63,873 nucleotides of DNA from a virus (IMGVR_UViG_3300013006_000032:1-63873), one strand, 5' to 3'; counted from the stretch's first letter, positions 6,001 through 63,151 are shown. Notes: generated from the letters alone by a model not told the origin. Program-made: numbers and translations.

Positions 6001-6194
6001 ACTTCATACCAATTATTAAGGTATGATTGATAGCGAAGTAAAAAGTCGTTAGCGTTAGTATAAAGCGAATTATTATACTGTAACCAAGCTTGAAATGTTA
6101 AAGGCTCGTTACTATCGATAGGGTTATCTGGCTTTATTAACGAAGTAATTGATGCTGAAAGCCGTTCATCTATAAATCTGCTTGAATCTAACAT
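3054..6194 (-). CDS. Large structural protein, probably baseplate-associated (1046 aa)
   Basis: Long ORF with a late promoter, downstream of the gp6 cluster; no specific motif recognised. Confidence 0.55.
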   Translation of the reverse strand: MLDSSRFIDERLSASITSLIKPDNPIDSNEPLTFQAWLQYNNSLYTNANDFLLRYQSYLNNWYEVKNTVKTSRIDITKSLYTTLINEIVLSFTSSDEKRFLKNIDFNNNRDLAIAVPFFAQKIKEICLYYSTLRDDIKTGSLRYNLKGSNLGVEKLIYNEISKSLETEDLTDLTRSLAITLSSIRDNMVIDVEDLYDTYTSYLDVSPTMPASAYSATNKRKDYFSLNQYDIDPNLFLDFNYSIVDAITSYPFFLTELGTNNFNITPQVDATQLQYLKDADFINTINTQQLDNLNLNLTQTGIKKYIGTDFYYISTNSTSTNYISGILFSAENEFANYLNKRYPAVAAIADTTFIKTAKEIGLFFKPDKIGLSNFHNFGLNFEVNPDALSANTLYIFPDPNKFGNISGLTEEEFLNPLSFTELSYFNKIDFSNQFRFGDSETNSYYQTFRSYQSREQTLDTSLQGIAKYTDPQEFFKGDLKSIWANKDIYPVVPQNEFPLDNRIEKLVSLGKTVVQYKNDIYGNEFSLYKDVHPIKIASNNKVNNTNAKLIYCLTVDGYVFFDPISGYNFNYKEVDEEKNYSGIILKTTTNIPPGTGFYLPGPNIFTPTPLSASFYDNGAPMFALTGTVLPLVSYRYQLETFCPSKIDVVFLCSVMDGVTFVSPSSGLLPDYPSDEPTFNPQNANVYYMELIDGGSTPLEPNFIPNFVNPAEFLFIPPLSAITDVNGSIFVYNSASPCGDALDFVVSYTEPSNYLNYHIPLRNTKVIEGISGLDIKRTMYQTKYLDYGALYYRNSNSTIILPGSAALSGLLIKYNTEINNEIVNNLINFDIYYDTIQFETENYIVFDKIKFDYETNTIINTTKNDLFFKRGDNKDLEKLSTVWFNETENILFLCRTVLYPQLSATNNKIVYPEIYSLNLGTLEFNRLFPVIEQPLLTFDELKQFSLSGTGLNINIIEIEKPLFAYDSDTGTYSITYLGKDLSNTFYIIKTFFKYVNGVITNITNTLFKLMPETDTLNFAGALSSSYTTYTVVGSGPGSIIDGAFTFE

Positions 6195-6199
6195 TTAAA

Positions 6200-6207
6200 T
6201 ATTTAAT
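6200..6207 (-). promoter_or_regulatory. gp55-type late promoter ATTAAATA, 5 nt before ATG 6194
   Basis: Variant of T4 late consensus TATAAATA. Confidence 0.65.
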
Positions 6208-9200
6208 TGTTATATACTATGTCGCTACCACTTAAAAACAGTCTAAGTCCTTTAGTAAGCTCATAGCTTAATAGATTTTGCATTATACCGCTGTCTTTAC
6301 TCCATTCATTAAAAGAACTACTAGTAAACTGTAGAGTAGTTTGTGGGTTGTCCCAGTCTATAATATTATTATAATACGAACCTTCAAATACCGGTATATA
6401 ATTAAAAAACCTATAATAATCAGATATCATTATACCGGAAACGCCTCGAGGCGCGATTAACCCCCAACCCCAGTCGTAATTATACCCCGATAGGCTTATT
6501 GGATCGTTTAATTCATAGCCATTAATTGCAACATTGTTTATTAGTGTATAATTTCCGGAGAATATTTCGTAAGCTATAACAGGCTCTCCGCAGAAAATAA
6601 TACTTGAAAGAATTGATAGCTGGGTACCTAAATTGTTAGGAGCGCTGTTGTATATACCAGATCCTGGTTTATAAAAATTTTGCTGAAATTTATTTCTCTC
6701 TCCCCAAAGGTTTTTATGTTTAATTGATAGTATGTCAACTAATCGTCTTAATTGTGGTGGAAAGGGGTAATTATATTGCTCAAATTGAATCGATAACTCT
6801 CTGCAAAAAGAAATAACTTGATTAAGATTAGCTTTATCTACATCTGTTGTATTAGAAACATAATTAGCTATTTTTTCATAGATCGTTCTTCCCAATTCGT
6901 AAGGCTGTGCAGAAGCGCCTCCAACTATAGTACCGAGAAAATCGTTAAAAAAGATATTTTTATCTTCTAAGCTTTCAGTGAAGATAAGCGATTTATAAAA
7001 AGCAGCAGCATCAAAATCTTCGTTAATTTTGTATAAGTTATACTGACCGTTGGTTGGAAGTATGTTAAACATATTTGACTGCCCTGTAATAGTTCTAAAA
7101 GCAGTTGTCTGTATCATATACTTGTTAATCCATCTACTTCCTAGCCAATCACCATATGCTTGAAATGACTGCTCTTCAAAAGCAGAGACAGGATTCTGCT
7201 CACTATTAGGAGGGAATGTTAAGTCGACATTAGGATATTCATTCACCCCCGATACTGGTTCTGCTAGTGAATCAACAAAATACATTTTACCGGTGGTGTT
7301 ATTAATTACCCAAATATATGATGCGGTATCAGAAGCGATACCACCTATGCTATTGTAATAGTTTGTAATATTGCCTGATCCTGCAATATAATTTGTACGA
7401 TTGCCGTCACCTGCATCTACTCTCGTAAGAGTGTCTCTGTCCTGCACTACCCAAGCATTTTGATATCCATCAACAGTAATATCACCTATAAAATTGAACC
7501 CTGTTAAAGGATACCCTGATGTGAGTTTACCAAGAGAAGAGAATTTAAACAAATAATCATTTTTACCGGTAAGACCTGTAATATTATTGTTGTTATAATT
7601 ATATGCGGTAACCCAAACATTTTTATTTCGATCAATACATATAGCTGCGGGTGTTATAAGGCTAGGAAACGGAATAACAGTTAAGAGAGTACCGTATGTA
7701 TCATATTTTACAATAAAATTAGATACAGGGTGGGTATATGATACCCAGATATTATCATCTCTATCTGTATCAATACAAGAAGGTAGAAATAAATTTTCAC
7801 CAGCAAACCCACTTAGCGACTTAATATTATAATCTCCGCTCAAATAATAAACAAAATTTGTACCAGTAGGGTAAGCTACAGACTTTATATATCCGCCTGA
7901 TGCATCAACTTTAATACATGAAACAGAATCAAATAAGGCTATCCAAATATCGCTTTTGCTATCCATAGCAATACTTCCTGGCGCGGCGCTTGAGAGCACC
8001 GGTGAAAGTAGATTAGTATATGCTAATTCACCGGGCGCAGATAGATATGGAAAATTAGAAAAATTAAATGAGGATAATGTATTACCACTAGCATCAAATT
8101 TAAATAATTTATCACTTGTACCGTCTGCAAACCAGGTGCAGAAATCTAACCCCGGACCATTACCCGATGGTGCAACTTGAATAGCGTATACGTTTCTATC
8201 ATTATTAGAATTAAAATAATCTCCTCTAGCAGAAATAGTAGTTGTTAAATACCCCGGGCACATACTATATATCTGTTGTCTAAAGAATCTTAATAGCATG
8301 TTAAATTGTGGGACTGCTACCCAGCCAATAAGAGAATCTTTTGGAAAATTAAGCGGATCCTGGATACTTACACTTGCAGTTAGTATGCAATTATTAGTAG
8401 CATACGGAACGGTAAAGTATCCCTTATAAAATGCGCCTATAGACTGAGGAATATCTGGTAAAAAGTCTTCGTAAAATTTTATATCCTCTAGAGGAATATA
8501 CCTACCGGTGAGAGTATCTTGTATTAGGCCAAAAGTTACATTAAAAGCGGTTAATGTAGATAGATTTGAATATATAGTAGAAGAAGATAGGGGTGGATAT
8601 GTTTTTGTAGTAAAATTATCAATATCTTTCATTCTAATAACAAAAGGTATTTCGGTATTTTCCCAGCTTATCTCAGGTATATCGAATTTAGTACTCGAAA
8701 GGGTACCTTCTCCTACAATACCGGTTGTAGAAATAGATAGTTTCTCTGCAGGGTTATGTCTAACTTTAATTATCGGTAATACTGCAGGTTTAATATTTTG
8801 AAACCCGTAAGGTGGATACGATATATACTCAAAACTATTATTAGCTATTGAATAGCTATCATTAAATTTAGAATTATCGAGCGTAGCAAAAACAAAAATC
8901 GGGGGTTCGCGAGTAGTATAATTTTTAGTAGTATCGTCGACATAATAAAAGCTACATGTTCCAGTAGTGCCTGCAAAGACACTGCCTTGATCATTTTTAC
9001 CACAAATACTAAGTTCGCCATTATTAACACGTGCATATACTTCAACGGTAGATGTTTGTATTTTATCAATTAATGTATATTCTTGATAATTTCCCAACTG
9101 CGATTGCTTATAGAATCTACTTAGTGCACGCAGATGTGACCATTTGTCATTGAAGAAGCTGGCTTGATCTTGATATTCACCTAATGCGCCTGAAGCGTAT

Positions 9201-11524: not shown

Positions 11525-12007
11525 TTAGTTTATAAAGTTGAATCCAGTATTACTTAATATTCCAACTAGCTGAAAACTACTTGAAACATCGATAGTAAGT
11601 ATTGAGACGTTAAGAGTTATCACGTATTGTTGGTTTACTTCATCAGCTGTGACATTTATATTTTGTACACGAACTCTAGGTTCAAATGTTGTAATACCTT
11701 TTAGAACATCGTTTCCTATGTTATACGCTGTCGTCTCGCTAACAGGGAGAAAAAGGTACTTCTGTAAGCCTAAGCCAAATAAAGGTGTTAATATGCGCTG
11801 GCCAGGAATAGTAGTAAATAGGTTAAATATAGAGTTTCTTACTGCAGCGTAATCATAATCGATTTGAAGATCTTTAATCTCTTTTCTTCTTAAGAACTCA
11901 TTGTTCTTTGTATAATCTATCTTTAAATCGAGTAATAAATCAGTATAAGTAAATTTACTTGTAGATTGTTCAGGCTTTGCAATCGATTGAATTTTAATAG
12001 TCGCCAC
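11525..12007 (-). CDS. gp25: Baseplate wedge subunit, T4 gp25-like
   Basis: AVRNSIFNLFTTIPGQRILTPLFG...FEPRV. Start refined to GTG 12007 (track 12013) using the promoter spacing. Confidence 0.9.
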   Translation of the reverse strand: MATIKIQSIAKPEQSTSKFTYTDLLLDLKIDYTKNNEFLRRKEIKDLQIDYDYAAVRNSIFNLFTTIPGQRILTPLFGLGLQKYLFLPVSETTAYNIGNDVLKGITTFEPRVRVQNINVTADEVNQQYVITLNVSILTIDVSSSFQLVGILSNTGFNFIN

Positions 12008-12012
12008 ATACA

Positions 12013-12020
12013 TATTTATG
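12013..12020 (-). promoter_or_regulatory. late promoter CATAAATA, 5 nt before GTG 12007
   Basis: Seen in sequence. Confidence 0.65.
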
Positions 12021-12063: not shown

Positions 12064-12071
12064 AATAAATA
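12064..12071 (+). promoter_or_regulatory. late promoter AATAAATA, 6 nt before ATG 12078
   Basis: Seen in sequence. Confidence 0.65.
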
Positions 12072-12077
12072 ATTTAA

Positions 12078-12686
12078 ATGAAGAGAAATTTTGTCAAACT
12101 CTATGAATCAACACTGCAGCGCTATACAAATGGTGGGTTTTTAACGGGTGATGTTGTTGTCTTTAAAGAAGGTGCACTGAAAGCTGATTGGTTTAAATCC
12201 TTAGGCTCTAATACACAAGAAAAGATTAAAAAAATGGTAGAAAGCGGGTTAAACTTACGTGTATCTGCTGTTAAAAACGTTCTTCCTAATGTTATGGGTG
12301 CAGGTAATACGGATTATACAGGTACTGATGTTAATGTTGATATTACATCAGAAATTGCACCAGGTAGATATATGGATTTTGCTACTGTTCCAGGTAATGC
12401 ATTAGCTTCAAAATGTTCATATCCTAATCTTCCAGAAGTACCTGAAGTTTTAAAGAAAGACGATCCTGCAAGACGTACTAATATCAAACCTAAAAAGGTT
12501 AAAGATGAGCAGGAAGAAGTACCTTTCTATTCCCCAGCGCGTACTAGAGAATCTGATTTAGGCAATCTCAAGATGTCAGCAGGAGATAGAGTATTAAACA
12601 ATCAAAACGTTAAAATACCGTCATCGCCTGCAGTGGGCAATGCAGATCCTGCTACATATACAGCAAAATACCTACCCAAAAAATAG
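12078..12686 (+). CDS. Hypothetical late protein (202 aa)
   Basis: Clean ORF with late box; N-terminus MKRNFVKLYE resembles a capsid-targeting leader. Confidence 0.7.
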   Translation: MKRNFVKLYESTLQRYTNGGFLTGDVVVFKEGALKADWFKSLGSNTQEKIKKMVESGLNLRVSAVKNVLPNVMGAGNTDYTGTDVNVDITSEIAPGRYMDFATVPGNALASKCSYPNLPEVPEVLKKDDPARRTNIKPKKVKDEQEEVPFYSPARTRESDLGNLKMSAGDRVLNNQNVKIPSSPAVGNADPATYTAKYLPKK

Positions 12687-14118: not shown

Positions 14119-14126
14119 AATAAATA
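14119..14126 (+). promoter_or_regulatory. late promoter AATAAATA, 5 nt before ATG 14132
   Basis: Seen in sequence. Confidence 0.65.
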
Positions 14127-14131
14127 TTATT

Positions 14132-14596
14132 ATGAGCGAAGAACTTAACGAAATGGTAGGGGATTTATTATCTCAGCTTAATGATGCTAATAAGAAGGCA
14201 GAAGTTGTTGCAAAAGAAAATAACCCTTTAATAAAAGAAAATATAGAAAAGTTTGTTATTGAGAAAGCAGGCAAATTAGTTGAAGAGAGTATTGACGTTG
14301 TATCTAATGTTAAGGAATATATCTCTTCGGCACCTGAGAGTAAAGATGTTGGTTCACTCGCTGATTTAATTGCTGCTACGTCTACTGCTATTGAAACGCT
14401 TAATAAGATTATTGTAGCAGATAAGAGAAATGATACAACTATTAAAACAAAAGAAATGGATATTGCGTCACGTAAGGAAATGAAAGAAGCAGATAATACT
14501 TCAAAGTTGCTCACAACGAGAGAACAAGTATTTAAAATGCTTATTGATAGTGCAAATAAGAGTGCAAAAATTATAGATGCTGAGATAGTGGATTAA
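14132..14596 (+). CDS. Probable terminase small subunit (gp16-like)
   Basis: 154-aa helical protein with gp16-like layout (LVEESIDVV...SLADLIAA...LNKI...LLTTREQVFKML); late promoter. Confidence 0.6.
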   Translation: MSEELNEMVGDLLSQLNDANKKAEVVAKENNPLIKENIEKFVIEKAGKLVEESIDVVSNVKEYISSAPESKDVGSLADLIAATSTAIETLNKIIVADKRNDTTIKTKEMDIASRKEMKEADNTSKLLTTREQVFKMLIDSANKSAKIIDAEIVD

Positions 14597-18324: not shown

Positions 18325-18687
18325 TCACTTTAAAGCACTTCTAATTTCGTTTAAAACAGCGTTAACAGATTCAGGTTTTATAAGCTTAATAAGCTTTCCT
18401 TGTTCAGGGAATTTAATAGGATTATATACTTTATTAGTAAGACATATTAACCACCATAAATCTATCGTTTTATATGCGTTATAGCTAATAATGGTCCAAG
18501 GCATTTTTTGTGATACTAATTGATAATAAATATATTCTTCGCTAATATTGTCAGGTAGGTATACAGATTGTATGAGATTATAGTAATATTGGTTAGCATC
18601 TGTTGCATAAAGCTTAAAGATGTTCTCGTATCTTGTAGTCTTAAGACTTGGTAAATCAGTAACATTATTTTGAAAAACGCCATTCAT
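18325..18687 (-). CDS. gp53: Baseplate wedge protein, gp53-like
   Basis: WTIISYNAYKTIDLWWLICLTNKVYNP motif. Confidence 0.8.
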   Translation of the reverse strand: MNGVFQNNVTDLPSLKTTRYENIFKLYATDANQYYYNLIQSVYLPDNISEEYIYYQLVSQKMPWTIISYNAYKTIDLWWLICLTNKVYNPIKFPEQGKLIKLIKPESVNAVLNEIRSALK

Positions 18688-18692
18688 TTAAA

Positions 18693-18700
18693 TATTTATA
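18693..18700 (-). promoter_or_regulatory. late promoter TATAAATA (exact T4 consensus), 5 nt before ATG 18687
   Basis: Seen in sequence. Confidence 0.8.
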
Positions 18701-18717: not shown

Positions 18718-20061
18718 TCAAGGTGTCGGTAATCCTGGAGCAGTTGCATTGGTATCAAGCGGATTTTGGCCTGCAGCAGAACTATTAGCAGCTGCTTCTC
18801 GTAAGAACGGATTTAATACATCGTTAATACCTGCACCTAAAGTATTTGTAGTGACAATATTGTTTTTATTTAAAACAGAATACATAAAATTCTTTGATTC
18901 AGGAAGTAGACTTTTAACTGTTATTCTGATATTATATGCATCTGGTACAATTGTGGTTACGTTTCTCGGTGTTGCGACATTACTGAACCCTCTAACTACT
19001 GTTTCGAGGGTTTGTTGTGGGTTAAGTGTCGGGCCTGCTACGGGTATTGATGCATCTACATTTAAACTGTCAGTTACTGATAGTCCGAAAGATAATTCTC
19101 GACGCGATCCTTGAAATTCAACAGCAAGATCTGAAATATAGCAAAACGGTAAAAACTTTACCCCGGGTATTTCGACTTGATATATTACCGGTGGGTCAAT
19201 AACTGATACATTCTTTCTAGAAGGCTTGTTATTATATAGGATAAGAAATAATAATTCCCAGTTTCTAATAACATCATCAAATGATGCAGATCCTGTATTT
19301 ATTAGAGGAAAAGAAAATGAAAAAGAATCGCCTTCCGTTGGGTAATTATAGAATTTAGCTTTTTCAACAAAAGTAATTTGAGTAGGGTTATTAAGTACAG
19401 ACAGCATTGCAGCCCAATCGGTAACCATATTAGCTCCTTGCTGTAATAACCCGAGAAATGCACCGCCGCCCGTATCATTGGAAAATGTGTTAGCTTGTGA
19501 GTTATTATAATTGGTAAAATAAGGCATTATAAACTGCCACCCAGTAGGCTCGGTAATGTAAAGGTTTTGATAGGGTAATAAATAGGGATTATTTTCATAC
19601 ACATCATTGGTGTCTTGAAACCCGGGTATAGAATTATAGTAATCACGAACCGCTTGACCAGCATCAGAGTTTACTGCAGCGCTATAAGTCTTACTTATAA
19701 AAGAATTTAAACCTTTTGAGATATTGTTAGGGAGCTTATTAATTAATGCTTGTCCGTTTGATTTAACCACGCCGAAAGAGTATTTTAATTGAGATATTAG
19801 TGCATTAGATTTTAATCTCTTTTCTGTTAAAATGATACGCGGGACTTCTTGCCTGGACTCCTTTAATTTAGAATATGTCCAATAGAAATCATTTACAACA
19901 TTGACAACTCCTCCGTTAGAAGTATTGCTATTAGTACCGATCCCTGATCCTATGGGTGTATTTGAAGGAGATATTAGTACTGGTGGCTCTACGTCTACTG
20001 AATTATCTTTTTTAAAGTTTACGTAATTCTTTGTTCTTGAAATAGAGAAGACGTGCTGCAT
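18718..20061 (-). CDS. Baseplate/tail-tube cap protein (gp48-like)
   Basis: FSFSFPLIN...PPVIYQVEIPG...CYISDLAVEF tube-like fold; synteny. Confidence 0.55.
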   Translation of the reverse strand: MQHVFSISRTKNYVNFKKDNSVDVEPPVLISPSNTPIGSGIGTNSNTSNGGVVNVVNDFYWTYSKLKESRQEVPRIILTEKRLKSNALISQLKYSFGVVKSNGQALINKLPNNISKGLNSFISKTYSAAVNSDAGQAVRDYYNSIPGFQDTNDVYENNPYLLPYQNLYITEPTGWQFIMPYFTNYNNSQANTFSNDTGGGAFLGLLQQGANMVTDWAAMLSVLNNPTQITFVEKAKFYNYPTEGDSFSFSFPLINTGSASFDDVIRNWELLFLILYNNKPSRKNVSVIDPPVIYQVEIPGVKFLPFCYISDLAVEFQGSRRELSFGLSVTDSLNVDASIPVAGPTLNPQQTLETVVRGFSNVATPRNVTTIVPDAYNIRITVKSLLPESKNFMYSVLNKNNIVTTNTLGAGINDVLNPFLREAAANSSAAGQNPLDTNATAPGLPTP

Positions 20062-20066
20062 ATATA

Positions 20067-20074
20067 TACTTAAT
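20067..20074 (-). promoter_or_regulatory. late promoter variant ATTAAGTA, 5 nt before ATG 20061
   Basis: Seen in sequence. Confidence 0.55.
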
Positions 20075-21981
20075 TAAAATCTCGTCAAATGAGACATGTC
20101 TTTTCTAAAATCAAGATTTGAGGAAGATTTCTCATTAAAGACTAAATTACTAGATGAATTATTAACAAGGACATTAGATTTTTGTTCTTTATCCTTAATT
20201 GCTGCTAGTAAATTCATATTTTCATTCATTAACTTCATTTCATTCTGTTGCATCATTGATGTGCTTTTAGCGTAAGATTCAAAGCTCTTTCTCAATTCTG
20301 TAACAACACCAGTTAATTGTTTAATAGAATTATTTGTCATTTCGTCTCTACGACCTATTATTTTATCAATCGGACCGCCTTTTTTTAGAGCTACTAATTC
20401 ATCGTTCTTATCAAACGAATAAGATTGCCCGTTAGAAAACAGAGTTCTATCTTTAGTATCATATAAATCACCTACCGGTTTTTTCTTTTGCTTGGACGCA
20501 TTTATTTTTGCTACAGCTCTATCGTAATCACTTGTATCCTCTTTAGGACTCATTCCAAATAAACTTTTAATTTTATTCCATAGGAAATTCCAGAGCTCTG
20601 CAATTGTATCAGATAGTGAATTGTCTTTAAAGAAATCAGTAATTGCTTTACCCCATTCTTTACTAAAGAATCCGACCGCCCAGCCAATTGCTTGACCGAG
20701 AGCATCGCCCAAAAGCTCAGGTAATAATGCCAAAGAACGTAAGACTGATTCCACAACATTACCGGATTTCCATGCTTTCATAATTTTGTCTGTATATTCC
20801 TTAACCACTTTAAAATTAACAAGACCAAAAGTAATGAATTTTAAGAACCCGCCTAAAACACCATCAAAAACTGCTTTAAGATTAGCACCTTGTTCCATAA
20901 CTGATTTAAAAGTCTCCGTTGCCACATCAATTAATGCAAAAATCCAGAAAAATGCCTTTTCTGCAAGTCTAAAAACTGGACTTTCAACTATAAACTTGAA
21001 TGCATTATTAAAAACTCCTAAAAAAGGCTCAAATAATTTAAAGATACCTTCTGCCCAGCCGAATAATGTATCTTTTACTGCACGTACCTTACTCAAAATC
21101 ATACCAATTATACCTTCTTCTTTAAAAACGTTACCTATACTTCTTATAAACCCACCAATTATACCTTCTTCTGCAAAAAGACCTTTAAATCCTGCCCATA
21201 ATTTACCAATTGTACCTTCTTCTGCAAAAAAACTCTTTATGTTACCGAATATTTTACCTAATACTCCCTCTTCTGAAAAAAGTGCTCGTATTCTTTTGAC
21301 CACACCGCCAATAACGCCTTCTTCAGCAAATAACCCCTCCATGCTCTTAATAATTTTACCTATGGCGCCCTCTTCAGTAAATAGAGCTTTGAACCGCCTG
21401 TATGTGCTACCGATTATACCTTCTTCTGCAAAAAGTCCTTTAATCCATTTCCATAACCTACCAAAAATACCATCTTCTTTAAATGCACCGGTTATTTTGA
21501 GAAACCAATCTCCTGCCCCCACCTTTAAGACTTCCCACCAACCCTTGAAGCTGGAAAAAATAGTTTTTAGAACTGTATAGAAATTTTTTATGTATCCATA
21601 TAAGAATTTTACAAGCCCTGAGATTAGACCAGCAATTACAGTACCAACAAACAGCCAGGGAAAGGGTTTTTTCTCTTCTTTTTTTGTTTCAACAGCAAAA
21701 GATGTGGTGCCTTTTAGAACTTTAGCAATTTCTTTTTTCCCATCCACTGTAATGCCATCAATTACTATGGGCACTGCTTGATACGTTTTTTGCTTTTGTT
21801 TTAATCTTCTAATTTTCTCTTGATCTTTATCTTGATTAGAGAAAGTATTTTTTACAGCATCAAACCAGGACGCTTTTTCATCACCATTATCTGTTTTTTT
21901 ATTTTTAGAGAGAAAAGCGACGACAATATCCAATTTGTTACTGATGTCAAGTATATTGCTTTCCAGAGCATTCTCGTTCAT
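20074..21981 (-). CDS. Tape-measure-like protein (gp29-like position)
   Basis: 635 aa, helical/amphipathic, periodic aromatic residues, hydrophobic segment; located between hub chaperones and tube cap. Confidence 0.65.
   Translation of the reverse strand: MNENALESNILDISNKLDIVVAFLSKNKKTDNGDEKASWFDAVKNTFSNQDKDQEKIRRLKQKQKTYQAVPIVIDGITVDGKKEIAKVLKGTTSFAVETKKEEKKPFPWLFVGTVIAGLISGLVKFLYGYIKNFYTVLKTIFSSFKGWWEVLKVGAGDWFLKITGAFKEDGIFGRLWKWIKGLFAEEGIIGSTYRRFKALFTEEGAIGKIIKSMEGLFAEEGVIGGVVKRIRALFSEEGVLGKIFGNIKSFFAEEGTIGKLWAGFKGLFAEEGIIGGFIRSIGNVFKEEGIIGMILSKVRAVKDTLFGWAEGIFKLFEPFLGVFNNAFKFIVESPVFRLAEKAFFWIFALIDVATETFKSVMEQGANLKAVFDGVLGGFLKFITFGLVNFKVVKEYTDKIMKAWKSGNVVESVLRSLALLPELLGDALGQAIGWAVGFFSKEWGKAITDFFKDNSLSDTIAELWNFLWNKIKSLFGMSPKEDTSDYDRAVAKINASKQKKKPVGDLYDTKDRTLFSNGQSYSFDKNDELVALKKGGPIDKIIGRRDEMTNNSIKQLTGVVTELRKSFESYAKSTSMMQQNEMKLMNENMNLLAAIKDKEQKSNVLVNNSSSNLVFNEKSSSNLDFRKDMSHLTRF
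21100..21485 (-). repeat. Eight 51-nt (17-aa) tandem repeats F-x-E-E-G-x-I-G
   Basis: FKEDGIFG, FAEEGIIG, FTEEGAIG, FAEEGVIG, FSEEGVLG, FAEEGTIG, FAEEGIIG, FKEEGIIG at 17-residue spacing. Confidence 0.85.
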
Positions 21982-21987
21982 TAATAA

Positions 21988-21995
21988 TATTTAAC
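21988..21995 (-). promoter_or_regulatory. late promoter GTTAAATA, 6 nt before ATG 21981
   Basis: Seen in sequence. Confidence 0.6.
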
Positions 21996-22757: not shown

Positions 22758-22761
22758 AAAG

Positions 22762-49883: not shown

Positions 49884-49889
49884 AAGACA

Positions 49890-49917
49890 ATTATAGTACA
49901 GCTGCTTGTCAAATCAA
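49890..49917 (-). promoter_or_regulatory. sigma70-type promoter TTGATT-N16-TATAAT, 6 nt before GTG 49883
   Basis: Seen in sequence. Confidence 0.75.
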
Positions 49918-49926: not shown

Positions 49927-50496
49927 TTAAGCAATATCATTATATAGAGCTATTAGCTTACCAAAATTGTATAGCTCTATCTTCTTGACCCCACAGCTTT
50001 TTATTTTATTCTTATTAGTGTCATTAAAGAAGTAGTTTGTTGTTTTTTCAGATGTCGGTGCCTGTAGATCTTCAATAATATAGAGCCCGCCCTTTTTAAT
50101 TGAAGAAAAAAGATTAAAAAAGCAATTCATATGATGATCGTGTAAATGACTTCCATCATCAATAATAATATCAAATTCAGACTGTATTTTTAAAATATTT
50201 AAAATATCTTCCTTGCAGCCAGCGTCGCCTTTTAGTGTCTTAACTCTTTCAATATTAAAGTGACTACAGTCAACTATATCAAAGCCGAAAATATTAGCTT
50301 TAGAAAAATATTCAGATAATACTTTTAAAGACGCTCCAGGAAATAATGGATCTGCAATTCCTATTTCTAAAATATTAATTTTTTTATTCTTAAAGGGTGC
50401 GAATATTTTTTCGTAAGTAAATGAATAACAGTGTTTTTCGCGAACTTCGTCGCCTTTATCAGTCCCGTGTTTATTGCAAAGATCGTTAAAGGTCAT
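49927..50496 (-). CDS. Class I SAM-dependent methyltransferase (sugar O-methyltransferase-like)
   Basis: GTDK, ILEIGI, GFDI, FDIIIDDGSH and GGLYIIEDL. Confidence 0.85.
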   Translation of the reverse strand: MTFNDLCNKHGTDKGDEVREKHCYSFTYEKIFAPFKNKKINILEIGIADPLFPGASLKVLSEYFSKANIFGFDIVDCSHFNIERVKTLKGDAGCKEDILNILKIQSEFDIIIDDGSHLHDHHMNCFFNLFSSIKKGGLYIIEDLQAPTSEKTTNYFFNDTNKNKIKSCGVKKIELYNFGKLIALYNDIA

Positions 50497-51704
50497 AACC
50501 CATTAATAGAATTTAGGAGCGCTCGTTTTGAATCACCATAAGGATGTGAATACAATTCAACATATTTGTTAATATTATCTTCATTTTCAAGCCATCTACT
50601 TTCTGCAACTTTTCTAAACTTAGCGCAGCTGTTCATATATTTTCCTTTTTTCTCCAAAGTATCCTCAATACAACCGATCATTTCTTCACCCGTTTTAAAT
50701 TTAATAGAGGCGTCTTTATATGTAACAAGATCTTGACATGCAACCGGTAACCCGTAGCTACATGCTTCAATATACTTTAAATCACTTTTAGCTTTGTTAA
50801 AGGTGTTGTCTTGAAGTGGTGCAACCATCATATTAACACGGAGGTTATATATTTTCTCTGGATAGCTATACAGTTGAGACCATGGGTGAAACTCAAAATC
50901 ACCGTTCCTAATATAATTTTGTAGAGGAAGCGGAAAAGCACCTAGAAACACCCATTTATATTTGTCTTTTGTCTTGACAATAGCATCGATTACATGATGA
51001 AAATCGTCTTTCTGGCCTACGCGATTATCGACATCAAAATGTGCCCCTGACCCCGCATAAAGTATTCGAGGCTTATCTTCAAAGGCGTCGTAATTCTCTG
51101 AAATTCTTTTTTCGTTATAAAAATTACCCATCCACCATTTTGGAGGATAATTTGGAATAACCGTAATATTCTGATTCTTTGTTTTACCTAAGTAATAATC
51201 TTTCATGAAATCACATGTTACTGTAATTTCGTCGCATAGCTCCATAATTGCTTGCGCGGTTCTACGAATTGAAGGGTCTGTAAAAGCTGGCTTAAACTTA
51301 TTATACTCAGGAATATCTTCACTAAATACAAGATCGTCGATTTCATATATAATACGGAACCCAACTTTTTGGCTTACCTCCTTAAGAAATTGTACAAATT
51401 TTAATTGACTTTCTGTTGCTTGACGCTGAATTCTAACAGCTTTAACACCTCTATAGTAATTGGGATCAAAGCACATTACAGTGCTGCCATGTACAACTAG
51501 TTTTTGATGCGCATTTAAAAGATGCTCAGGCCAGATCATGCGCCAAAATCCACATCCACTATAGTCGGCGTAGTAATTTAAAGCTCGAGGTAGATCAAGT
51601 TCTGGTGGACGAGGTACATCATTTTGCTTTGGTGCATTACCTACAATAGGTGAGGGAAAAGGTGAAACAAACGGTGAGGGTACGGGAAAGGGGCTAGAAA
51701 ACAT
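50493..51704 (-). CDS. GT-B fold glycosyltransferase (GT4-like)
   Basis: SGCGFWRMIWP, YEIDD, VIPN, APLQDNTFNKAKSDLKYIEA. Confidence 0.8.
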   Translation of the reverse strand: MFSSPFPVPSPFVSPFPSPIVGNAPKQNDVPRPPELDLPRALNYYADYSGCGFWRMIWPEHLLNAHQKLVVHGSTVMCFDPNYYRGVKAVRIQRQATESQLKFVQFLKEVSQKVGFRIIYEIDDLVFSEDIPEYNKFKPAFTDPSIRRTAQAIMELCDEITVTCDFMKDYYLGKTKNQNITVIPNYPPKWWMGNFYNEKRISENYDAFEDKPRILYAGSGAHFDVDNRVGQKDDFHHVIDAIVKTKDKYKWVFLGAFPLPLQNYIRNGDFEFHPWSQLYSYPEKIYNLRVNMMVAPLQDNTFNKAKSDLKYIEACSYGLPVACQDLVTYKDASIKFKTGEEMIGCIEDTLEKKGKYMNSCAKFRKVAESRWLENEDNINKYVELYSHPYGDSKRALLNSINGL

Positions 51705-53524: not shown

Positions 53525-54594
53525 GTATTATTAGCCCTCTTATATAGATCTAAGCAATAGCGAGACACATCGCTCTTCTTCTCTATATCAAGTAATGTTA
53601 CGAATTCTTCAATAGCTTTACTCATATCTACACCAGATAAATCATACGCTTGATCTTCATTTACTGTAATTGAATCATTATAGAGAGTGTAGTCAACAGA
53701 TAAATTAAACGGTTTGTGGGTAGATATTTTTTGAATGAGAAGTTCAATATTATCGCTTGTAATTTTCTTGTCTACAATAAGCTTGATAATATTGTTATTG
53801 ACTGTATCTTTTACTTCTGTTGCACTAAGTGATTTAAATGTCATTAAATCAGTTAGTGTTACTTTCTTATGTTTAGGTGAAAGCTTGTTCTCATAAAACG
53901 TATAATTTAAATTATTAAAATCTAAAATATAATATCCTTTGGTTGAGCCGGTATCACCAAAATCCATTTCGAACGGATTACCAACGTATATAATTGTCTG
54001 TTTATCATATTTACGTTCGTCGCGTAAATGAAAATGACCGGTCATTATTAAATCGGCCTTAGCTAAAAGATCTGAAGTTTTCATACCATGATCACAATGC
54101 TTATGGCTATTCATTTTAAAGCTTTCGATCTCTAGATGTCCAAACAATACATCTGACTTTTTAATAGACCTCACATCTGCTCCCCAAGGTAAAAAGGATA
54201 CCTCTTTACCAAGCACTGTATATGTTACAGCTTCACTGATTACCAAGATATTCTTCCAGCCGTCTAGAATAGAGAGTGAATTAATATCGGATCTATCTTT
54301 ATAAAAAGCGTCATGATTACCGACAATAATCACAATATTAAAGTCAGCCCATAGTTTAAGGATCTGATTTACAACATGAATAGTGTTTACAGCAATTTCA
54401 TCTCTATAATGATAGAGATCACCAAGAATAAATATATCTTTTATTCCTTTAGCGAGAAGTTCTTTTTTTAGCCACGCTGCCCAGCTTAGCGCAGTTTCGT
54501 GCCAAAAGATACTATTTTGATGTACACCAATATGTAAGTCTGCAATGCAGCAGACTTTATCGGTACGTATATTTAATTCCTTCGTCGTACTCAC
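53521..54594 (-). CDS. gp47: Recombination endonuclease nuclease subunit (Mre11/SbcD-like)
   Basis: DLHIG, LGDL, GNHD, GHLE and GHFH. Confidence 0.95.
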   Translation of the reverse strand: MSTTKELNIRTDKVCCIADLHIGVHQNSIFWHETALSWAAWLKKELLAKGIKDIFILGDLYHYRDEIAVNTIHVVNQILKLWADFNIVIIVGNHDAFYKDRSDINSLSILDGWKNILVISEAVTYTVLGKEVSFLPWGADVRSIKKSDVLFGHLEIESFKMNSHKHCDHGMKTSDLLAKADLIMTGHFHLRDERKYDKQTIIYVGNPFEMDFGDTGSTKGYYILDFNNLNYTFYENKLSPKHKKVTLTDLMTFKSLSATEVKDTVNNNIIKLIVDKKITSDNIELLIQKISTHKPFNLSVDYTLYNDSITVNEDQAYDLSGVDMSKAIEEFVTLLDIEKKSDVSRYCLDLYKRANNT

Positions 54595-55181
54595 TCAGAT
54601 GTGTTATAATTATCGTCATTAGGCTCGACATATATATGTGCGCCGCCTGTTTCTTTTGTATCAAGCATAAGCTCGGTAAATACCTTTTCTCGGTATTCAT
54701 TAAGTACAGCGTGATGTTTATTTTCTTTTTTAATTCGATTGATAAAAGCATGAAACGCAATTGTAGTAAAATATGAGAAAGGACTAAATCCTGTATCGAG
54801 TTTAAATTTTTGATTACGAAGAGCGGAGAACATTTTAACTACAGCATCACCTATCATGTCATCCTTGTAAGAGTAGTTAATAAAGTTAGGAGCGTACGAA
54901 AGACCATGGGCAATCTTTGTCAAACTTTCTCCTAGCTTTTGCGTTACGTGACCAGATTTATAATAAGCGCGAATCTCTTCTTCAAATTCTTTACTATTAA
55001 CATAGTGAACTTTATCCTTAGCTTTTACTTTCTTTTTGACTTCAGGTGTCGTGGATGGAACAGCTAACACACCTGTAGCCAATATTTTTGTTAAAGTAGG
55101 ATCGTTAGTAACATCCTCTGAAAAAACCTCTTTATGGTTCTTTGATTTCTTTGATTGAGTGCTGTATTTTTTCTTTTTCAT
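54591..55181 (-). CDS. gp55: Late-transcription sigma factor
   Basis: HYVNSKEF, LSYAPNFINYSYKDDMIGDA, PFSYFTTIAFHAFINRIKKE. Confidence 0.92.
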   Translation of the reverse strand: MKKKKYSTQSKKSKNHKEVFSEDVTNDPTLTKILATGVLAVPSTTPEVKKKVKAKDKVHYVNSKEFEEEIRAYYKSGHVTQKLGESLTKIAHGLSYAPNFINYSYKDDMIGDAVVKMFSALRNQKFKLDTGFSPFSYFTTIAFHAFINRIKKENKHHAVLNEYREKVFTELMLDTKETGGAHIYVEPNDDNYNTSE

Positions 55182-57007: not shown

Positions 57008-57280
57008 ATGAAATCAATAAATTTATTCGAAAAGGCATTTAACAATCTCCTTGAGGAAGATAATGTTGCGGGGGGAGTAGGTAGTGCCTTTGGACCGGGT
57101 ACAGATGGGCCCATTGGATCTTTTGGTAATCAATTTCCTTCGCAAAATGATAAAGCTTATGCACCGGGTGATGCACGGTTGCCTAAGATTCTGGGCGCTA
57201 AAAGAAAGAAGCGTAAAAAGGAAAAATTTATAGTGCAAAGAAGACCACTTCCTGGATTAGAATTAAATTCTGCTAAATAA
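57008..57280 (+). CDS. Small hypothetical protein
   Basis: ORF; LFEKAFNNLLEE leader. Confidence 0.6.
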   Translation: MKSINLFEKAFNNLLEEDNVAGGVGSAFGPGTDGPIGSFGNQFPSQNDKAYAPGDARLPKILGAKRKKRKKEKFIVQRRPLPGLELNSAK

Positions 57281-57286
57281 CTGCAT

Positions 57287-57706
57287 ATGGATTTAGGGCA
57301 CTGGTTATTAGGTGAAGATGTTATTTTAACAGATGATACTTTTGGCTTTATATATGAAATAACTAATACTGTAACGAGCAAGAAATATATAGGAAAAAAG
57401 CAATGTAAATCTAAGCTTAAGCGCAAGCCTTTAAAGGGTAAGAAAAATAAGAGAATAGAAATTAAGGAATCGGACTGGAAGGAGTATACTAGTTCGTCCG
57501 CAGAGCTTAATGAAGATATAAAAAAATTTGGCAAAGATAAATTTATTTTTAAGATATTGCGTGCATGTGGTTCAAAGTGGGAATTGGCTTACTTTGAAAT
57601 ACGCGAGCAATTAGAGAGGAATGTTTTAATGCGAGATGACTATTATAATGGCATTATAAATGTAAGAATTGGTCGTCCTCCAAAGAATTTTCTTGAAAGT
57701 TTGTAA
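57287..57706 (+). CDS. GIY-YIG nuclease-domain protein
   Basis: FGFIYEITN...KKYIGKK...Y..SS...E...YYN; late box GCTAAATA (57272-57279). Confidence 0.8.
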   Translation: MDLGHWLLGEDVILTDDTFGFIYEITNTVTSKKYIGKKQCKSKLKRKPLKGKKNKRIEIKESDWKEYTSSSAELNEDIKKFGKDKFIFKILRACGSKWELAYFEIREQLERNVLMRDDYYNGIINVRIGRPPKNFLESL

Positions 57707-58290: not shown

Positions 58291-58298
58291 AATAAATA
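58291..58298 (+). promoter_or_regulatory. late promoter AATAAATA, 5 nt before ATG 58304
   Basis: Seen in sequence; heads the 58304-61854 operon. Confidence 0.7.
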
Positions 58299-58303
58299 AT
58301 AAT

Positions 58304-58750
58304 ATGGCATTTAACGACTTAATAAACAAATATGTTTCTCTTCTCGTAGAACAAGAACCAGCAGCTACCCAAGATGCAGCGGCTCCTGCACCACAAGCAG
58401 AGCAACCGGAGGCTCTTCCGAAGAGCAAAGAACAAACAGTTACCGTACCACCGGAAGGCTACGTAGATATGGTTAGATTGCTTGCTAAAGCTCTAGTAAT
58501 GAATGTACCTGCAGGTTCAATCGACGCGCTTTTCACAACTCCTATTACAAAGGAAAATGCAACAGCAGTTAGAGAGGGCCTTCAGGATGCAATTAATACA
58601 AACGAGAATTATGCAGATAACCCTCAAAAAATTGCAGACCCTCATGTGCAGCATTTTATTAACTCAATAAATGAAAATAATTTTATGGTAAAATATAAGC
58701 AAATTTTAGCTATTATGAAAAATTATAGTAACGATCCTAAATTAAAATGA
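58304..58750 (+). CDS. Hypothetical late protein (probable internal head protein)
   Basis: MAFNDLINKYVSLLVEQ leader followed by an A/P-rich linker. Confidence 0.65.
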   Translation: MAFNDLINKYVSLLVEQEPAATQDAAAPAPQAEQPEALPKSKEQTVTVPPEGYVDMVRLLAKALVMNVPAGSIDALFTTPITKENATAVREGLQDAINTNENYADNPQKIADPHVQHFINSINENNFMVKYKQILAIMKNYSNDPKLK

Positions 58751-59987: not shown

Positions 59988-61201
59988 TATCTTTTAAGCA
60001 GTTTTTACTCGAAGGGGGTGCTGCTGGCCATATGGCTCATCCTTTTGATCTCGCTAACGTTAATTCTGGCAGAGATCTAATAAACATCTTCAATAAACTA
60101 GCAAACAGTCTTGCAAAAAAACCTTCCGTAGTCAAGATAGATGGTGTTAATACATCAATAAGACTTATTACAGATGCAGAAGGTAAGAAGCAATTTGCAA
60201 TGGATAGAGGTTCAAATAAAAAAGAAGATGTTGAAGGTGTAACAATCGATAAGTTGAGCTTTCGTTTTCCTACTGGCCATGGTATGATTGAAACGGGTAA
60301 AACAGTTCTTGATATATTTAACACCGCAATTCCATCCATAGAAAAGGAACTTAAAAAACTTGGAATGTGGGATAACGATCAAATTTTATTTAATATGGAA
60401 TATGTTAAAGGAGCAACTAACGTTGTTGGTTATGTTAATAACTTTCTTGCTATACATGGTTTAAATAAAATTATAACAGTAAAGAGTCCGGTAAAAGGAA
60501 GTGTTAGTAGAGCATCGCGAGAAATTCCTTATGATAAGAAAGCACTTCAATCATTAATTGAAAAGGTTGATCCAATTGCTAAGAAAAAGGGGTTTGATGT
60601 TTCGCATGAATTTGTTGTTAAGGTAGATAAAAAAATTGATTTTAATGATGTTTTAAATTCTAAATTCACAGTTAATTATGATACAAGAAATATTGTTACA
60701 AAGCCATTGAAGGAATGGCTTTCAAAGGCAGTAAATCCTGGGGCAGATAAAATTACTCTAGCTTCTGGCAAAAAAATAAATGCGATGAGTTTAGAAAATT
60801 ATAAGAATTTTTCTATAGGTGTACCTATGCATCAGTATATTGGTGATAATACAAAAGATATTGAGAAAGCAATTTCTGGTGCTGTACTATATCATGCAAC
60901 AATTATACTGGGTCAAAAGATTAAAGATGTTACCACATCAGAGCTGGGTGATGTAGGTACGCAGGAAGGTATAGTAGTAAGAGATCCTAGTATATCCCCT
61001 AACCCCGTTAAAATAACAGGCAATTTTATTTTAGGTAAAGAAGCTGGTAAGTTTGCTAAAAAGGCAGAAAATGAAGAGGGTGGTATTACTGGTCAAATAA
61101 GAAACGTTAATCGCGTTAATAATCCATTTAACTACCAAACAAACCCAGTTTACGGTAGAGAGGGCGCAAGACTTACTTTAACACCTGGATCTAATATATG
61201 A
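59984..61201 (+). CDS. Ligase-like covalent nucleotidyltransferase-fold protein (T4-like phage conserved family)
   Basis: EGGAAGHMAHPFD; motif I VKIDG, FNMEY, motif IV QEGIVV, motif V VKITG. Confidence 0.55.
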   Translation: MISFKQFLLEGGAAGHMAHPFDLANVNSGRDLINIFNKLANSLAKKPSVVKIDGVNTSIRLITDAEGKKQFAMDRGSNKKEDVEGVTIDKLSFRFPTGHGMIETGKTVLDIFNTAIPSIEKELKKLGMWDNDQILFNMEYVKGATNVVGYVNNFLAIHGLNKIITVKSPVKGSVSRASREIPYDKKALQSLIEKVDPIAKKKGFDVSHEFVVKVDKKIDFNDVLNSKFTVNYDTRNIVTKPLKEWLSKAVNPGADKITLASGKKINAMSLENYKNFSIGVPMHQYIGDNTKDIEKAISGAVLYHATIILGQKIKDVTTSELGDVGTQEGIVVRDPSISPNPVKITGNFILGKEAGKFAKKAENEEGGITGQIRNVNRVNNPFNYQTNPVYGREGARLTLTPGSNI

Positions 61202-61854
61202 AATTTGATTTACTAGTAGAAGAGATATTACAGCATCAAAAAAATAATCTTGTAGTTATATTTCCGGGGAGATTTCAGCCTTTTCATATTGGTCATAAGA
61301 GATTTTTTGATATGGCTAAAAAACAGTTTCCTGGAGCTGATTTTTATATAGCTACATCAGATACCCCTGCAAAAGCTGCTTCGAAAGAACCAGATAGATA
61401 TCCTTTTAATTTTGCAGAAAAGAAACAAATTATGCAAGCTGCTGGTATACCCGAAAAGGAGATTTTTCAGGTTGCTCAGCCTTATAAGCCTATTGAAATT
61501 TTAAAGAATTATGATCAAAATGTCGCAAAAGTTATTTATATAGTAGGCGAAAAGGATATGAAGGAGGATCCGAGATTTGCTTTCGGTATAACAAAAAAAG
61601 GTACACCAACGTATTTTCAGCCGTTTAAAAGTTTAAACGAAATGGAGCCTTTCAAGGAGCAAGGCGGACATGGATACATATATTCACCAGGTACTATTAA
61701 ATTTAATGTCGGTGGAAAGAATATAACGAGTGCAACAGAATTAAGAAACCTTTATAAAGCTGCAAACGAAGAGCAAAGAAAAGAATATATTACACAAATA
61801 CTAGGTAAATTTGATCCAAAGATTTATAATATCTTTAACGAAAAGCTGCGTTAA
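61198..61854 (+). CDS. HIGH-family cytidylyl/adenylyltransferase-like protein
   Basis: FPGRFQPFHIGH and SATELR. Confidence 0.85.
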   Translation: MKFDLLVEEILQHQKNNLVVIFPGRFQPFHIGHKRFFDMAKKQFPGADFYIATSDTPAKAASKEPDRYPFNFAEKKQIMQAAGIPEKEIFQVAQPYKPIEILKNYDQNVAKVIYIVGEKDMKEDPRFAFGITKKGTPTYFQPFKSLNEMEPFKEQGGHGYIYSPGTIKFNVGGKNITSATELRNLYKAANEEQRKEYITQILGKFDPKIYNIFNEKLR

Positions 61855-62408
61855 CTGTTTTTAGCTTCTAAAATATTAATTGTTTCAAGAAGTACTTTTT
61901 CTAAAACTTCCTTTGATTCTCTTCTCAAAACGGTTTTTAACTGCTTAACGAGATCATCGCCACCTTTTGAAATAGCACTAAAGAGCTCTTCTTCATTATT
62001 TTCCTCAACACCCATTAATTCCATTTCTTGACGTGCTGATTCATAATCCTCATAACCAAATACTGAGTCTAACTGATCATGCGCATTAGTTATTTTGCTT
62101 AGAACCCAGGCTTCAACATTGCCTTTATTCTTCAATAAATTGTGTAGCATAGCTGAAAGTTTAAAAATTCTAAATAAAAGCTGTCTAGACATTGTACTGT
62201 TGTTGTCGCTATTTTCATCTGTATACCCCTCACAATCCTCGCTTCTATCTTGTACACAGTCTCTTTTAGGAGGCATTGCAATTTTTTGAATTTTTGAAGG
62301 GGAAGGTGTTACACCTTCATTATCCGCTAGAGGCCCAAGACCAAGATTTTCCTTTAAAATCTTCTTATCATAAATTTCGTTTAATGTATCAAAATCTTTG
62401 GCAAACAT
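61851..62408 (-). CDS. Hypothetical late protein
   Basis: EAWVLSKITNAHDQLDSV motif; late box ATTAAATA (62414-62421) 5 nt upstream. Confidence 0.65.
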   Translation of the reverse strand: MFAKDFDTLNEIYDKKILKENLGLGPLADNEGVTPSPSKIQKIAMPPKRDCVQDRSEDCEGYTDENSDNNSTMSRQLLFRIFKLSAMLHNLLKNKGNVEAWVLSKITNAHDQLDSVFGYEDYESARQEMELMGVEENNEEELFSAISKGGDDLVKQLKTVLRRESKEVLEKVLLETINILEAKNS

Positions 62409-62475
62409 ATAATTATTTAATCAAATTCTTTAAAATTATTCATTGATTTAGATAAATGAAAACCGCTCAATAATC

Positions 62476-62483
62476 AATAAATA
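62476..62483 (+). promoter_or_regulatory. late promoter AATAAATA, 5 nt before ATG 62489
   Basis: Seen in sequence. Confidence 0.65.
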
Positions 62484-62488
62484 TATAG

Positions 62489-63151
62489 ATGGAACCCTTT
62501 AAGGATTTTTATAATAAACCTGTCCTTGGTGTTAATGAATATATTGACATTAACGGCATTGGCCGATTAAAGGCAAAGATTGACAGTGGTAACGAAGCTT
62601 ATAACGTGCTGCACGGTGTTGATGTTGAAGAAAATGGTGAAGAAATAACATTTACTACAGTAGGCAATAAGAGAATAAAGGCACCAAGAAGCGGTGAAAT
62701 AAAGATACATATAGGTAGTGGTGTAAAGGAAGACAGACCAATAGTAATGTTGGATATAAAGATAGATGGTAAAGAATACAAAGGTGTACCTTTTAGTATA
62801 GCCGATAGAACAGAAAATGAAGATCCTATTCTTGTCGGTGAACCTTTTTTGAAGAAGTTAAATGCAGTTATAGATGTAAATAAGAAATCTGTTAACGAAT
62901 CTACGAAATATAATGTTGTGATGCTTAATAAAAAAGATAAATTGGCTAGAGATTGGAAAAAAGCTCGTTATAGTGAAAATGCCTTACGTGCAGTTGCAAA
63001 TAGACAAAAAACTTTAATTGTTTCAAAGACTGGAAATCCAAAATTTAGAGGTAAAAGTATTCTTAAAATAATTAACCCAATTACTAAGAAAGCGTTTATC
63101 ATCTTCAAGAAGAAGACAAAGACCTCAGAAACCGATACAATAGAAAATTAA
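62489..63151 (+). CDS. Retropepsin-like (RimK-associated 'ATP-dependent Zn protease' family) aspartic protease with basic C-terminal extension
   Basis: AKIDSGN, RPIV, FSIADR and PILVGEPFL. Confidence 0.78.
   Translation: MEPFKDFYNKPVLGVNEYIDINGIGRLKAKIDSGNEAYNVLHGVDVEENGEEITFTTVGNKRIKAPRSGEIKIHIGSGVKEDRPIVMLDIKIDGKEYKGVPFSIADRTENEDPILVGEPFLKKLNAVIDVNKKSVNESTKYNVVMLNKKDKLARDWKKARYSENALRAVANRQKTLIVSKTGNPKFRGKSILKIINPITKKAFIIFKKKTKTSETDTIEN

Follow-up and report, generated by a model that had tools for sequence, protein, structure and literature searches.

The late genes of the uncultured, freshwater T4-like virus whose DNA is analysed here (the complete IMG/VR record IMGVR_UViG_3300013006_000032, called "the window" throughout: 63,873 bp, 32–37% G+C, with an estimated completeness of about 29% of the genome) are headed by a short box, nnTAA(A/G)TA, that stands 5–7 nucleotides (nt) before an ATG or GTG. 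Their messages probably begin on the start codon or within 1–2 bases of it, the box being a gp55-type promoter that abuts the start of translation. We infer the position of the transcription start, the dependence on gp55 and the binding of ribosomes to a 5′-terminal start codon from the motif, its spacing, its enrichment at gene starts, its class specificity and its conservation, all of which are read directly from the DNA. The initial annotation of the window had proposed leaderless late messages; class specificity, gap geometry, conservation and the contrast with phage T4, cyanophage P-SSM2 and a distantly related locus (L066) support that proposal at the level of sequence.

In the mechanism that we propose, the (A/T)TAAATA boxes would be −10-like elements recognised by the host RNA polymerase when it carries the gp55-type sigma factor of the phage, and transcription would start on, or no more than 2 bases from, the A or G of the start codon. 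Leaderless messages with a 5′-terminal AUG or GUG would serve to translate the first gene of each late unit, and stop–start coupling the genes downstream of it. The early and replication genes would use a host sigma-70-type version of the same design, in which a −35 TTG, about 17 nt, a TATAAT-like −10 element and about 6 nt lead up to the start. The whole phage clade would thereby largely dispense with Shine–Dalgarno (SD) leaders.

The late box at gene starts

All 25 boxes claimed by the initial annotation were found again, correct in coordinates, strand and spacing before ATG or GTG (25/25). The spacer is 5 nt long at 17 of the sites, 6 nt at six and 7 nt at two; the box reads TAAATA at 23 and TAAGTA at two (20061, minus strand, and 44060, plus strand); and the start codon is ATG at 21, GTG at four and TTG at none. 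The open reading frames (ORFs) opened by these sites encode 63–1046 amino acids (aa). An independent, greedy ORF call, which took the first in-frame start, yielded 69 non-overlapping genes, and the box stands upstream of 22 of these starts, with a gap between box and start codon of 5 nt in 15, 6 nt in five and 7 nt in two. The remaining three claimed sites belong to later in-frame starts, namely GTG 12007, which lies two codons into its frame, ATG 36766, the second of its gene, and ATG 30096, which is internal.

Elsewhere the arrangement is rare. The box occurs at a gap of 5–7 before 5/1796 other ATGs, and before 8/2799 non-start ATG or GTG codons as against 22/69 gene starts (Fisher p 3e-31), so that TAAATA is clearly enriched at −5 to −7. 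When the 40 nt upstream of each start were shuffled 2000 times, the mean box count was 0.82 and the maximum 6; enrichment over composition-matched sequence, which the initial annotation had proposed as a check, is thus borne out, with 0/2000 shuffles reaching 22. Nor does the box arise from upstream stop codons, its TAA being the stop of the preceding gene in 2/22 cases only, as read from the intergene distances.

No SD accompanies the box: GGAG, GAGG, AGGA or AAGG is found at −18 to −4 in 0/25 of the claimed sites. Over the whole window an SD core lies in this interval in 5/69 genes, whereas the identical test on a T4 late region finds one in 20/26, in keeping with the earlier remark that T4 late genes are SD-led. 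G is scarce at most columns from −12 to −6 (2–12/69 per column), and the upstream columns carry no purine-rich ribosome-binding signal. Aligning the 25 late sites reveals no conserved column at −30 to −3 relative to the box, and the spacer between box and start is 88% A/T.

The sigma factor that would read the box is encoded in the window. The gene at 54591..55181 (minus strand), already named gp55 by the initial annotation, matches the PHROG late sigma family (E 1.4e-26), and its product matches the T4 gp55 structure 7D7C, chain F (E 1.8e-7).

Promoter geometry

The −10 hexamer of a sigma-70 promoter occupies −12 to −7 and hence lies 6 nt before the transcription start (+1). The T4 late promoter, as described in the portions of PMC2988020 drawn on here, consists of a TATA box of 8 bp, roughly one helical turn above the start site, and of A/T-rich sequence that follows it; a −35 element is lacking. 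The corresponding portions of PMC7892883 report that the bases flipped by gp55 are those at −12 (an adenine), −9 and −8. From this base flipping we deduce that the T4 box lies at −13 to −6, that is, 5 nt before +1. In the window the late box most often stands 5 nt, and the sigma-70-type element described below 6 nt, before the start codon; these modal gaps equal the box-to-+1 distances, so that +1 would fall on the first base of the codon. The use of ATG and GTG with no TTG fits both initiation on a purine and recognition of a start codon at the 5′ end. Compared with the TATAAATA-like −10 element of T4, the TAAATA core is kept (2/25 have TAAGTA).

The surroundings of the box are consistent with a promoter in this position. 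Divergent gene pairs have starts 11–80 nt apart (12007/12078, 14113/14132, 29787/29799, 33595/33630 and 62408/62489), and facing boxes are the sole motif common to the divergent intergenic gaps. An intrinsic terminator at 30714..30746 (plus strand), with a 10-bp stem (30714–30739) and a T run, leaves only about 3 nt to the box of gene 30761; because terminator and box abut, the promoter of this gene has no other place.

A probable second class of promoter on the early genes

The 69 gene starts were sorted into 22 with a late box, 24 coupled (overlapping, or no more than 5 nt from, the preceding gene on the same strand), 12 with a TATAAT-like element (at least a 5/6 match with A2 and T6, ending 4–8 nt upstream of the start) and 11 others, several of which are mis-called TTG starts or sites re-called at a later codon. 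Among the 23 genes neither late-boxed nor coupled, a TATAAT-like −10 element lies at a gap of 5–7 in 12 and at a gap of exactly 6 in eight. The control value is 79/2799 at a gap of 5–7 (p 6e-13), and 0/2000 shuffles reach 12.

These two classes divide by function. The late box stands on the sheath, tube, tube-like and baseplate genes, and on 1/14 recognised genes of replication or nucleotide metabolism. In a hand-made table of the uncoupled genes with a PHROG category (excluding coupled genes and three of the "others", terminase, dUTPase and gp55), structural genes have six late boxes and no sigma-70-type element, and replication/nucleotide genes have one against seven (Fisher p 0.005). The coupled structural genes, 4/4, sit behind a late-boxed gene.

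The DNA polymerase gene carries the second class in full: its sigma-70-type promoter at 49881..49917 (minus strand) consists of TTGATT, 16 nt, TATAAT, 6 nt and GTG. The 54 related loci examined for this gene gave 44 unique upstream sequences, and the −10 hexamer is present at a gap of 5–7 in 37 of them (gap 6 in 30, gap 7 in five and gap 5 in two), with a TTG 16–18 nt above it as well in 31 of the 44. Across these sequences the last six bases ahead of the start come in 31 versions, and the start codon is GTG in 34 and ATG in eight. A −35/−10 pair conserved in otherwise drifting sequence, the −35 element having no role in translation, argues for a promoter with +1 on the start codon. The initial annotation had confined the leaderless layout to the late genes; the layout holds for them, but the restriction does not, the early genes looking leaderless too.

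One gene has kept a leader. At 43076..43103 (minus strand), TATAAT, 5 nt, AGGAGG, 8 nt and the start codon ATT (43078) precede an Ntn-amidotransferase-like gene, whose product begins M-C-G-I-F-G, and this AGGAGG is the sole strong SD found in the window. Of the related loci, 19/19 retain the TTGAA(T/A)/TATAAT promoter as well as the GGAGG and the ATT-TG(C/T), while the 8-nt spacer varies; ORF callers limited to ATG, GTG and TTG shorten the gene to 42985. The conserved GGAGG leader implies that SD pairing is available to phage messages, and that the sole start other than ATG or GTG retains its leader is what would be expected if leaderless translation needs a terminal AUG or GUG.

Conservation in related phages

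A scan of IMG/VR with the sheath protein gave 73 related loci (41–100% identity) with 652 called genes. The box lies before these genes at a gap of 5 in 191, of 6 in 125 and of 7 in seven; the spacing on which the initial annotation had built its case is thus conserved in related phages, gaps of 5–6 being dominant across the 73 loci. At the sheath gene itself the gap is 6 in 54/61 loci, with 23 distinct upstream sequences; among the other loci it is 9 in four (a subgroup of 41% G+C) and 7 in one, and one locus is truncated there. In the most distant locus, L066 (sheath 41% identical), the sheath gene has an AAGGAG leader without a nearby box, and the other genes have the box, then AAGGA or AAGGAG, then ATG, at gaps of about 15 nt. 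The same element thus persists where a leader is present.

A 157.9-kb relative, G001 (L153–L160), has the box at a gap of 5–7 on 45/173 genes. IMG/VR lists it as "provirus", yet genes with late-box starts are found right up to its two ends, the increase in G+C is confined to the final 8 kb, and nothing resembling a host flank was seen. We take the label to be a likely artefact.

A separate feature of the sheath gene is a AAAAGTTTTATCC-type stretch at 27427..27460 (minus strand), about 12 nt above the box and found in the same place in L002–L069. It is conserved across relatives of 60–77% sheath identity, and the alignment of the 25 late sites shows no column corresponding to it.

Comparison with known systems

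T4 and the window have in common the TAAATA core, a box followed by A/T-rich sequence and not accompanied by a −35 element, a gp55 gene, and the use of the box on virion genes, internal in-frame starts included, which are annotated in T4 genes 17 and 21. Unlike the window, with its 5–7 nt and no SD, the T4 late region examined has the box 14–46 nt before the annotated start, mostly 27–28, together with an SD; the first two box positions differ as well. Cyanophage P-SSM2 (Kyanoviridae) likewise has TAAATA-type boxes before virion genes, but at gaps of 15–51 nt. In pelagiphage HTVC008M (Kyanoviridae), TAAATA-type boxes are again found upstream of virion genes, as in the window; among 33 genes of a 25-kb region the gap is 5 in two and 8 in one, and the genes are mostly SD-led (SD-like core in 17/33). 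The sheaths of P-SSM2 and HTVC008M are 31–39% identical to that of the window, over partial length.

The leaderless mRNAs of bacteria and archaea share with the window a −10 element fixed 5–7 nt before ATG or GTG, and the lack of an SD. Such mRNAs reportedly occur in mycobacteria, and the cI message of phage lambda is an example from a phage. In these systems they make up a fraction of host genes or are single phage genes, whereas in the window nearly every unit, in two sigma classes, appears to be of this kind.

The internal start and RNA from lakes

Gene 29799..30686 (plus strand) encodes a 295-aa acidic protein of low complexity, a composition typical of scaffold proteins; searches of PHROG and Pfam gave no family match for it. 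The box of the long form lies at 29787..29801 (plus strand; 6 nt, ATG), within the first codons of the divergent terminase gene. A second, in-frame internal box at 30085..30098 (plus strand; 5 nt) precedes ATG 30096, which opens a short form of 196 aa. This internal ATAAATA-N5-ATG (box 30085–30090) is present in 23/23 orthologs of 40–74% protein identity, which differ among themselves in the bases of the spacer as well as in the encoded residues.

Ten lake or freshwater metatranscriptome runs contain part of the region, and the assembled contigs of four were compared with 20 kb of it, most of which is without contig cover; uncovered stretches are not read as evidence. The phage itself is present in the RNA runs, most pieces being identical to the window. 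In 4/4 runs the deepest contig (depth 4.8–18.4) lies within gene 29799..30686. These contigs start at 30117, 30121, 30124 and 30137, that is, 21–41 nt after the internal ATG 30096, and end at 30482–30715, with a second piece running to 30652 or 30705 in two runs; the far end of the cover, at 30705–30715, lies at the terminator described above. The first 99 codons (29799–30096) are covered by none of these contigs, and no loose end lies there. Such contigs would be expected from an abundant, monocistronic late RNA with its start at 30096 or close by, which we take as a weak hint.

Three runs also contain abundant 1.4-kb RNA contigs (records 9, 17 and 22; depth 26–34), which overlap the window by 18–22 nt. 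They touch it at 22239..22256 and 30692..30713, and the loose end bears another box-N7-ATG. These contigs belong to other organisms or to relatives, and most likely to a related phage that is expressed in these lakes too.

Weighing the alternatives

Several observations weigh against late messages that start on the start codon under the control of gp55. At the two positions before the core the box has A in 15/25 sites and A or T in 24/25, where T4 has T and A. The alignable pocket residues of gp55 named in the part of PMC7892883 used here are kept in 4/6 cases (L54, F86, Y97 and T99) and not in the case of R57 and H95. T4 late promoters also involve the co-activator gp33 and the sliding clamp gp45. 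No gp33 or gp45 PHROG label appears among the proteins of the window, which is about 29% of a genome and in which no search was aimed at gp33; a Pfam search of the 157.9-kb relative for the gp45 C-domain gave no match, but its positive controls gave none either. In place of a canonical box, the terminase gene has a TAAGTA at a gap of 3. The gap is 6–7 at 8/25 sites, and in the relatives there are minor peaks at 9 (n = 31), 10 (n = 24) and 12 (n = 15), with almost none elsewhere; gaps of 6–12 nt make leaders of one to a few bases (1–6 nt) likely for part of the genes. The RNA evidence consists of assembled contigs, without true ends or strand and without a DNA run for comparison, and one contig (X4, 25048..25237) spans the box of the tube gene, which shows that there is read-through RNA as well, or else DNA in the library.

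Motif avoidance adds modest support for the box as a signal. TAAATA occurs 119 times in the window on the two strands together. Inside genes it is found 40 times in the sense direction against 61.8 expected and 54 times in the antisense direction against 75.2 (z about −2.8 in each, from codon-order shuffles). These two forms show the strongest depletion among 12 plain hexamers; the z values of the others range from −1.6 to +1.4. In the relatives its antisense ratio, 0.59, is the lowest among 18 A/T hexamers. The support is modest because TA-rich hexamers are depleted generally and the related loci are not independent.

The contig across the tube-gene box also bears on a different account of the motif, in which it is an A/U-rich, non-SD element of translation initiation, a landing place for the ribosome or S1 within longer polycistronic mRNAs whose promoters lie elsewhere. 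The 5–7 nt resemble an SD-to-start spacing, an SD is missing from the sites, and the phage encodes a homolog of bS21, a ribosomal protein that plays a role in initiation. We nevertheless consider this account unlikely: the element is class-specific, the replication genes using TATAAT-like boxes with a −35 TTG at 16–18 nt; the same box stands upstream of SD leaders in L066 and T4; it is depleted on the antisense strand of genes; a terminator directly precedes one box; and the conserved GGAGG leader of the ATT-start gene implies that phage mRNAs can use SD pairing. The box could also be a late promoter whose initiation is displaced relative to T4, giving short real leaders or in-frame starts, with the annotated starts partly wrong. 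Gaps of 6, 7, 9, 10 and 12 nt, the differences from T4 in the box and the gp55 pocket, and the 3/25 starts that are not the first in frame would be explained in this way. However, the modal gaps of 5 (late) and 6 (sigma-70 type) would both set +1 on the start codon, the starts are ATG or GTG with no TTG, and the internal start keeps its gap of 5 nt in 23/23 orthologs despite varying spacer bases and residues, so that we rate displaced initiation as very unlikely. That the whole pattern is an accident of composition, produced by A/T-rich intergenic DNA and upstream TAA stops, has a practically negligible chance of being right. The window is indeed low in G+C and rich in TAAATA (the 119 occurrences given above), but the shuffles (mean 0.82, 0/2000 reaching 22) and the layout kept in 73 related loci refute it, and an upstream stop is used by 2/22 boxes only.

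Novelty and implications

Both T4-type late promoters and leaderless mRNAs are familiar on their own. In the full-text literature (subscription journals and supplements lie outside this coverage) we found no paper describing a systematic fusion of box and start codon in T4-like phages, in two sigma classes and throughout a large freshwater clade. T4 is the textbook model of phage expression, with leadered late messages, and its relatives described here appear to fuse the starts of transcription and translation. The group is large and environmentally common, with 73 related loci for the sheath and 56 for the polymerase in IMG/VR. If our reading is true, leaderless translation would predominate in a large virus even though the ribosomes of its host are still able to use SD pairing. 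Gene calling would change as well, since starts could be read from promoter boxes and internal isoforms would become visible, and a simple sequence rule would sort early from late genes in uncultured phages.

The gene set so largely free of SDs raises the question of the role of the phage-encoded bS21. The homolog lies at 39827..40039 (minus strand; PHROG E 5e-7, with Pfam PF01165 on its relatives). Its 20 homologs are all on apparently viral contigs of 170 kb or less, its Atlas neighbours are viral, and no cellular relative was confirmed when the bS21 alignment was scanned across the genomes of 185,579 species. It is conceivable, though improbable in our judgement, that the clade has given up SD initiation altogether, so that every promoter is a translation start, and that bS21 retunes the host ribosomes to 5′-terminal starts, favouring the phage over the leadered messages of the host.

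The host itself was considered as a reason for the missing SD. A SAR11-type host is rejected as such a reason as far as tested, the genes of HTVC008M being mostly SD-led. Bacteroidota promoters are of the TAnnTTTG type; a host from this group is judged unlikely, as the early promoters read TTG..TATAAT and a GGAGG leader is conserved. No tRNA was found in the window.

The individual late-box sites

The longest gene headed by the box is an ORF of 1046 aa (TAAATA, 5 nt, ATG; 6192..6205, minus strand). The site at 12005..12018 (minus strand; 5 nt) precedes GTG 12007, the start of a gp25-like baseplate wedge gene that is the first of the operon running from 12007 to 6203. Two sites on the plus strand follow, at 12066..12080 (6 nt, ATG, 202 aa) and 14121..14134 (5 nt, ATG, 154 aa). 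On the minus strand, the site at 18685..18698 (5 nt, ATG) opens a baseplate-wedge-like gene of 120 aa, the first of an operon extending to 14593; it is followed by the TAAGTA variant at 20059..20072 (5 nt, ATG, 447 aa) and by the site at 21979..21993 (6 nt, ATG, 635 aa).

Tail genes follow on the same strand. The site at 22755..22768 (5 nt, ATG) heads a gene of 249 aa with a weak T4_baseplate match. Of the virion labels given by the initial annotation, sheath, tube and gp25-like hold, while "gp53" comes down to this Pfam match of 22008..22757, which is below threshold (22.1 bits against a cut-off of 24.5). A tube-like gene of 302 aa, the first of the unit from 24509 to 22762, has its site at 24507..24520 (5 nt, GTG); the tail tube gene at 25081..25094 (5 nt, ATG); the tail sheath gene at 27412..27426 (6 nt, ATG); and a second tube-like gene, of 199 aa, at 28053..28067 (6 nt, ATG). 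The window thus has three tube-family genes (PHROG 45; 23601..24509, 24535..25083 and 27456..28055, all on the minus strand), each with its own late box: one on each side of the sheath gene, plus the longer one of 302 aa.

Beyond the scaffold-like gene, the site that abuts the terminator lies at 30750..30763 (plus strand; 5 nt, GTG, 106 aa), its gene being paired with the head-closure gene 31083. Two divergent sites lie at 33593..33606 (minus strand; 5 nt, GTG, 125 aa) and 33619..33632 (plus strand; 5 nt, ATG, 133 aa), with 34 nt between the two starts. Two more minus-strand sites head short genes, at 35284..35297 (5 nt, ATG, 63 aa) and at 36764..36778 (6 nt), before the second ATG, 36766, of a gene of 107 aa.

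The gap is 7 nt at 43114..43129 (plus strand; ATG, 296 aa) and at 57274..57289 (plus strand; ATG), the latter before a homing-endonuclease-like gene of 139 aa. The TAAGTA variant recurs at 44049..44062 (plus strand; 5 nt, GTG), before a gene of the UDP-galactopyranose mutase family. The site at 58293..58306 (plus strand; 5 nt, ATG) opens a gene of 148 aa, the first of an operon extending to 61854, and the last two, divergent, sites lie at 62406..62419 (minus strand; 5 nt, ATG, 185 aa) and 62478..62491 (plus strand; 5 nt, ATG, 220 aa).

Gene content of the window

The window holds a T4-type gene set: a DNA polymerase, gp41-, gp32-, UvsX-, UvsY- and gp46/47-like proteins, a clamp loader and a primase, together with the virion genes for sheath, tube, baseplate wedge proteins and the large terminase. 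A megablast search of a reference phage collection with 12 kb of the window gave no match at the DNA level, and the polymerase and sheath are only about 30–39% identical to proteins of cyanophages, pelagiphage HTVC008M and Sinorhizobium phages. There is thus no close cultured model for this phage, its protein-level relatives among known phages all lying below 40% identity.

Genes for a QueC-like protein (45046..45786), a GTP cyclohydrolase (63152..63796) and an amidotransferase (42395..43078), all on the minus strand, are present, which presumably points to a 7-deazaguanine DNA-modification pathway; no DpdA-type transglycosylase was seen among the window proteins. Genes of sugar metabolism are dispersed over the window (2..1042, 35582..36418, 44060..45049, 50493..51704 and 61198..61854). 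They encode two glycosyltransferases, a nucleotide-sugar epimerase, a UDP-galactopyranose mutase (Pfam E 2e-53) and a cytidylyltransferase, and the mutase gene bears a late-type box of the TAAGTA form.

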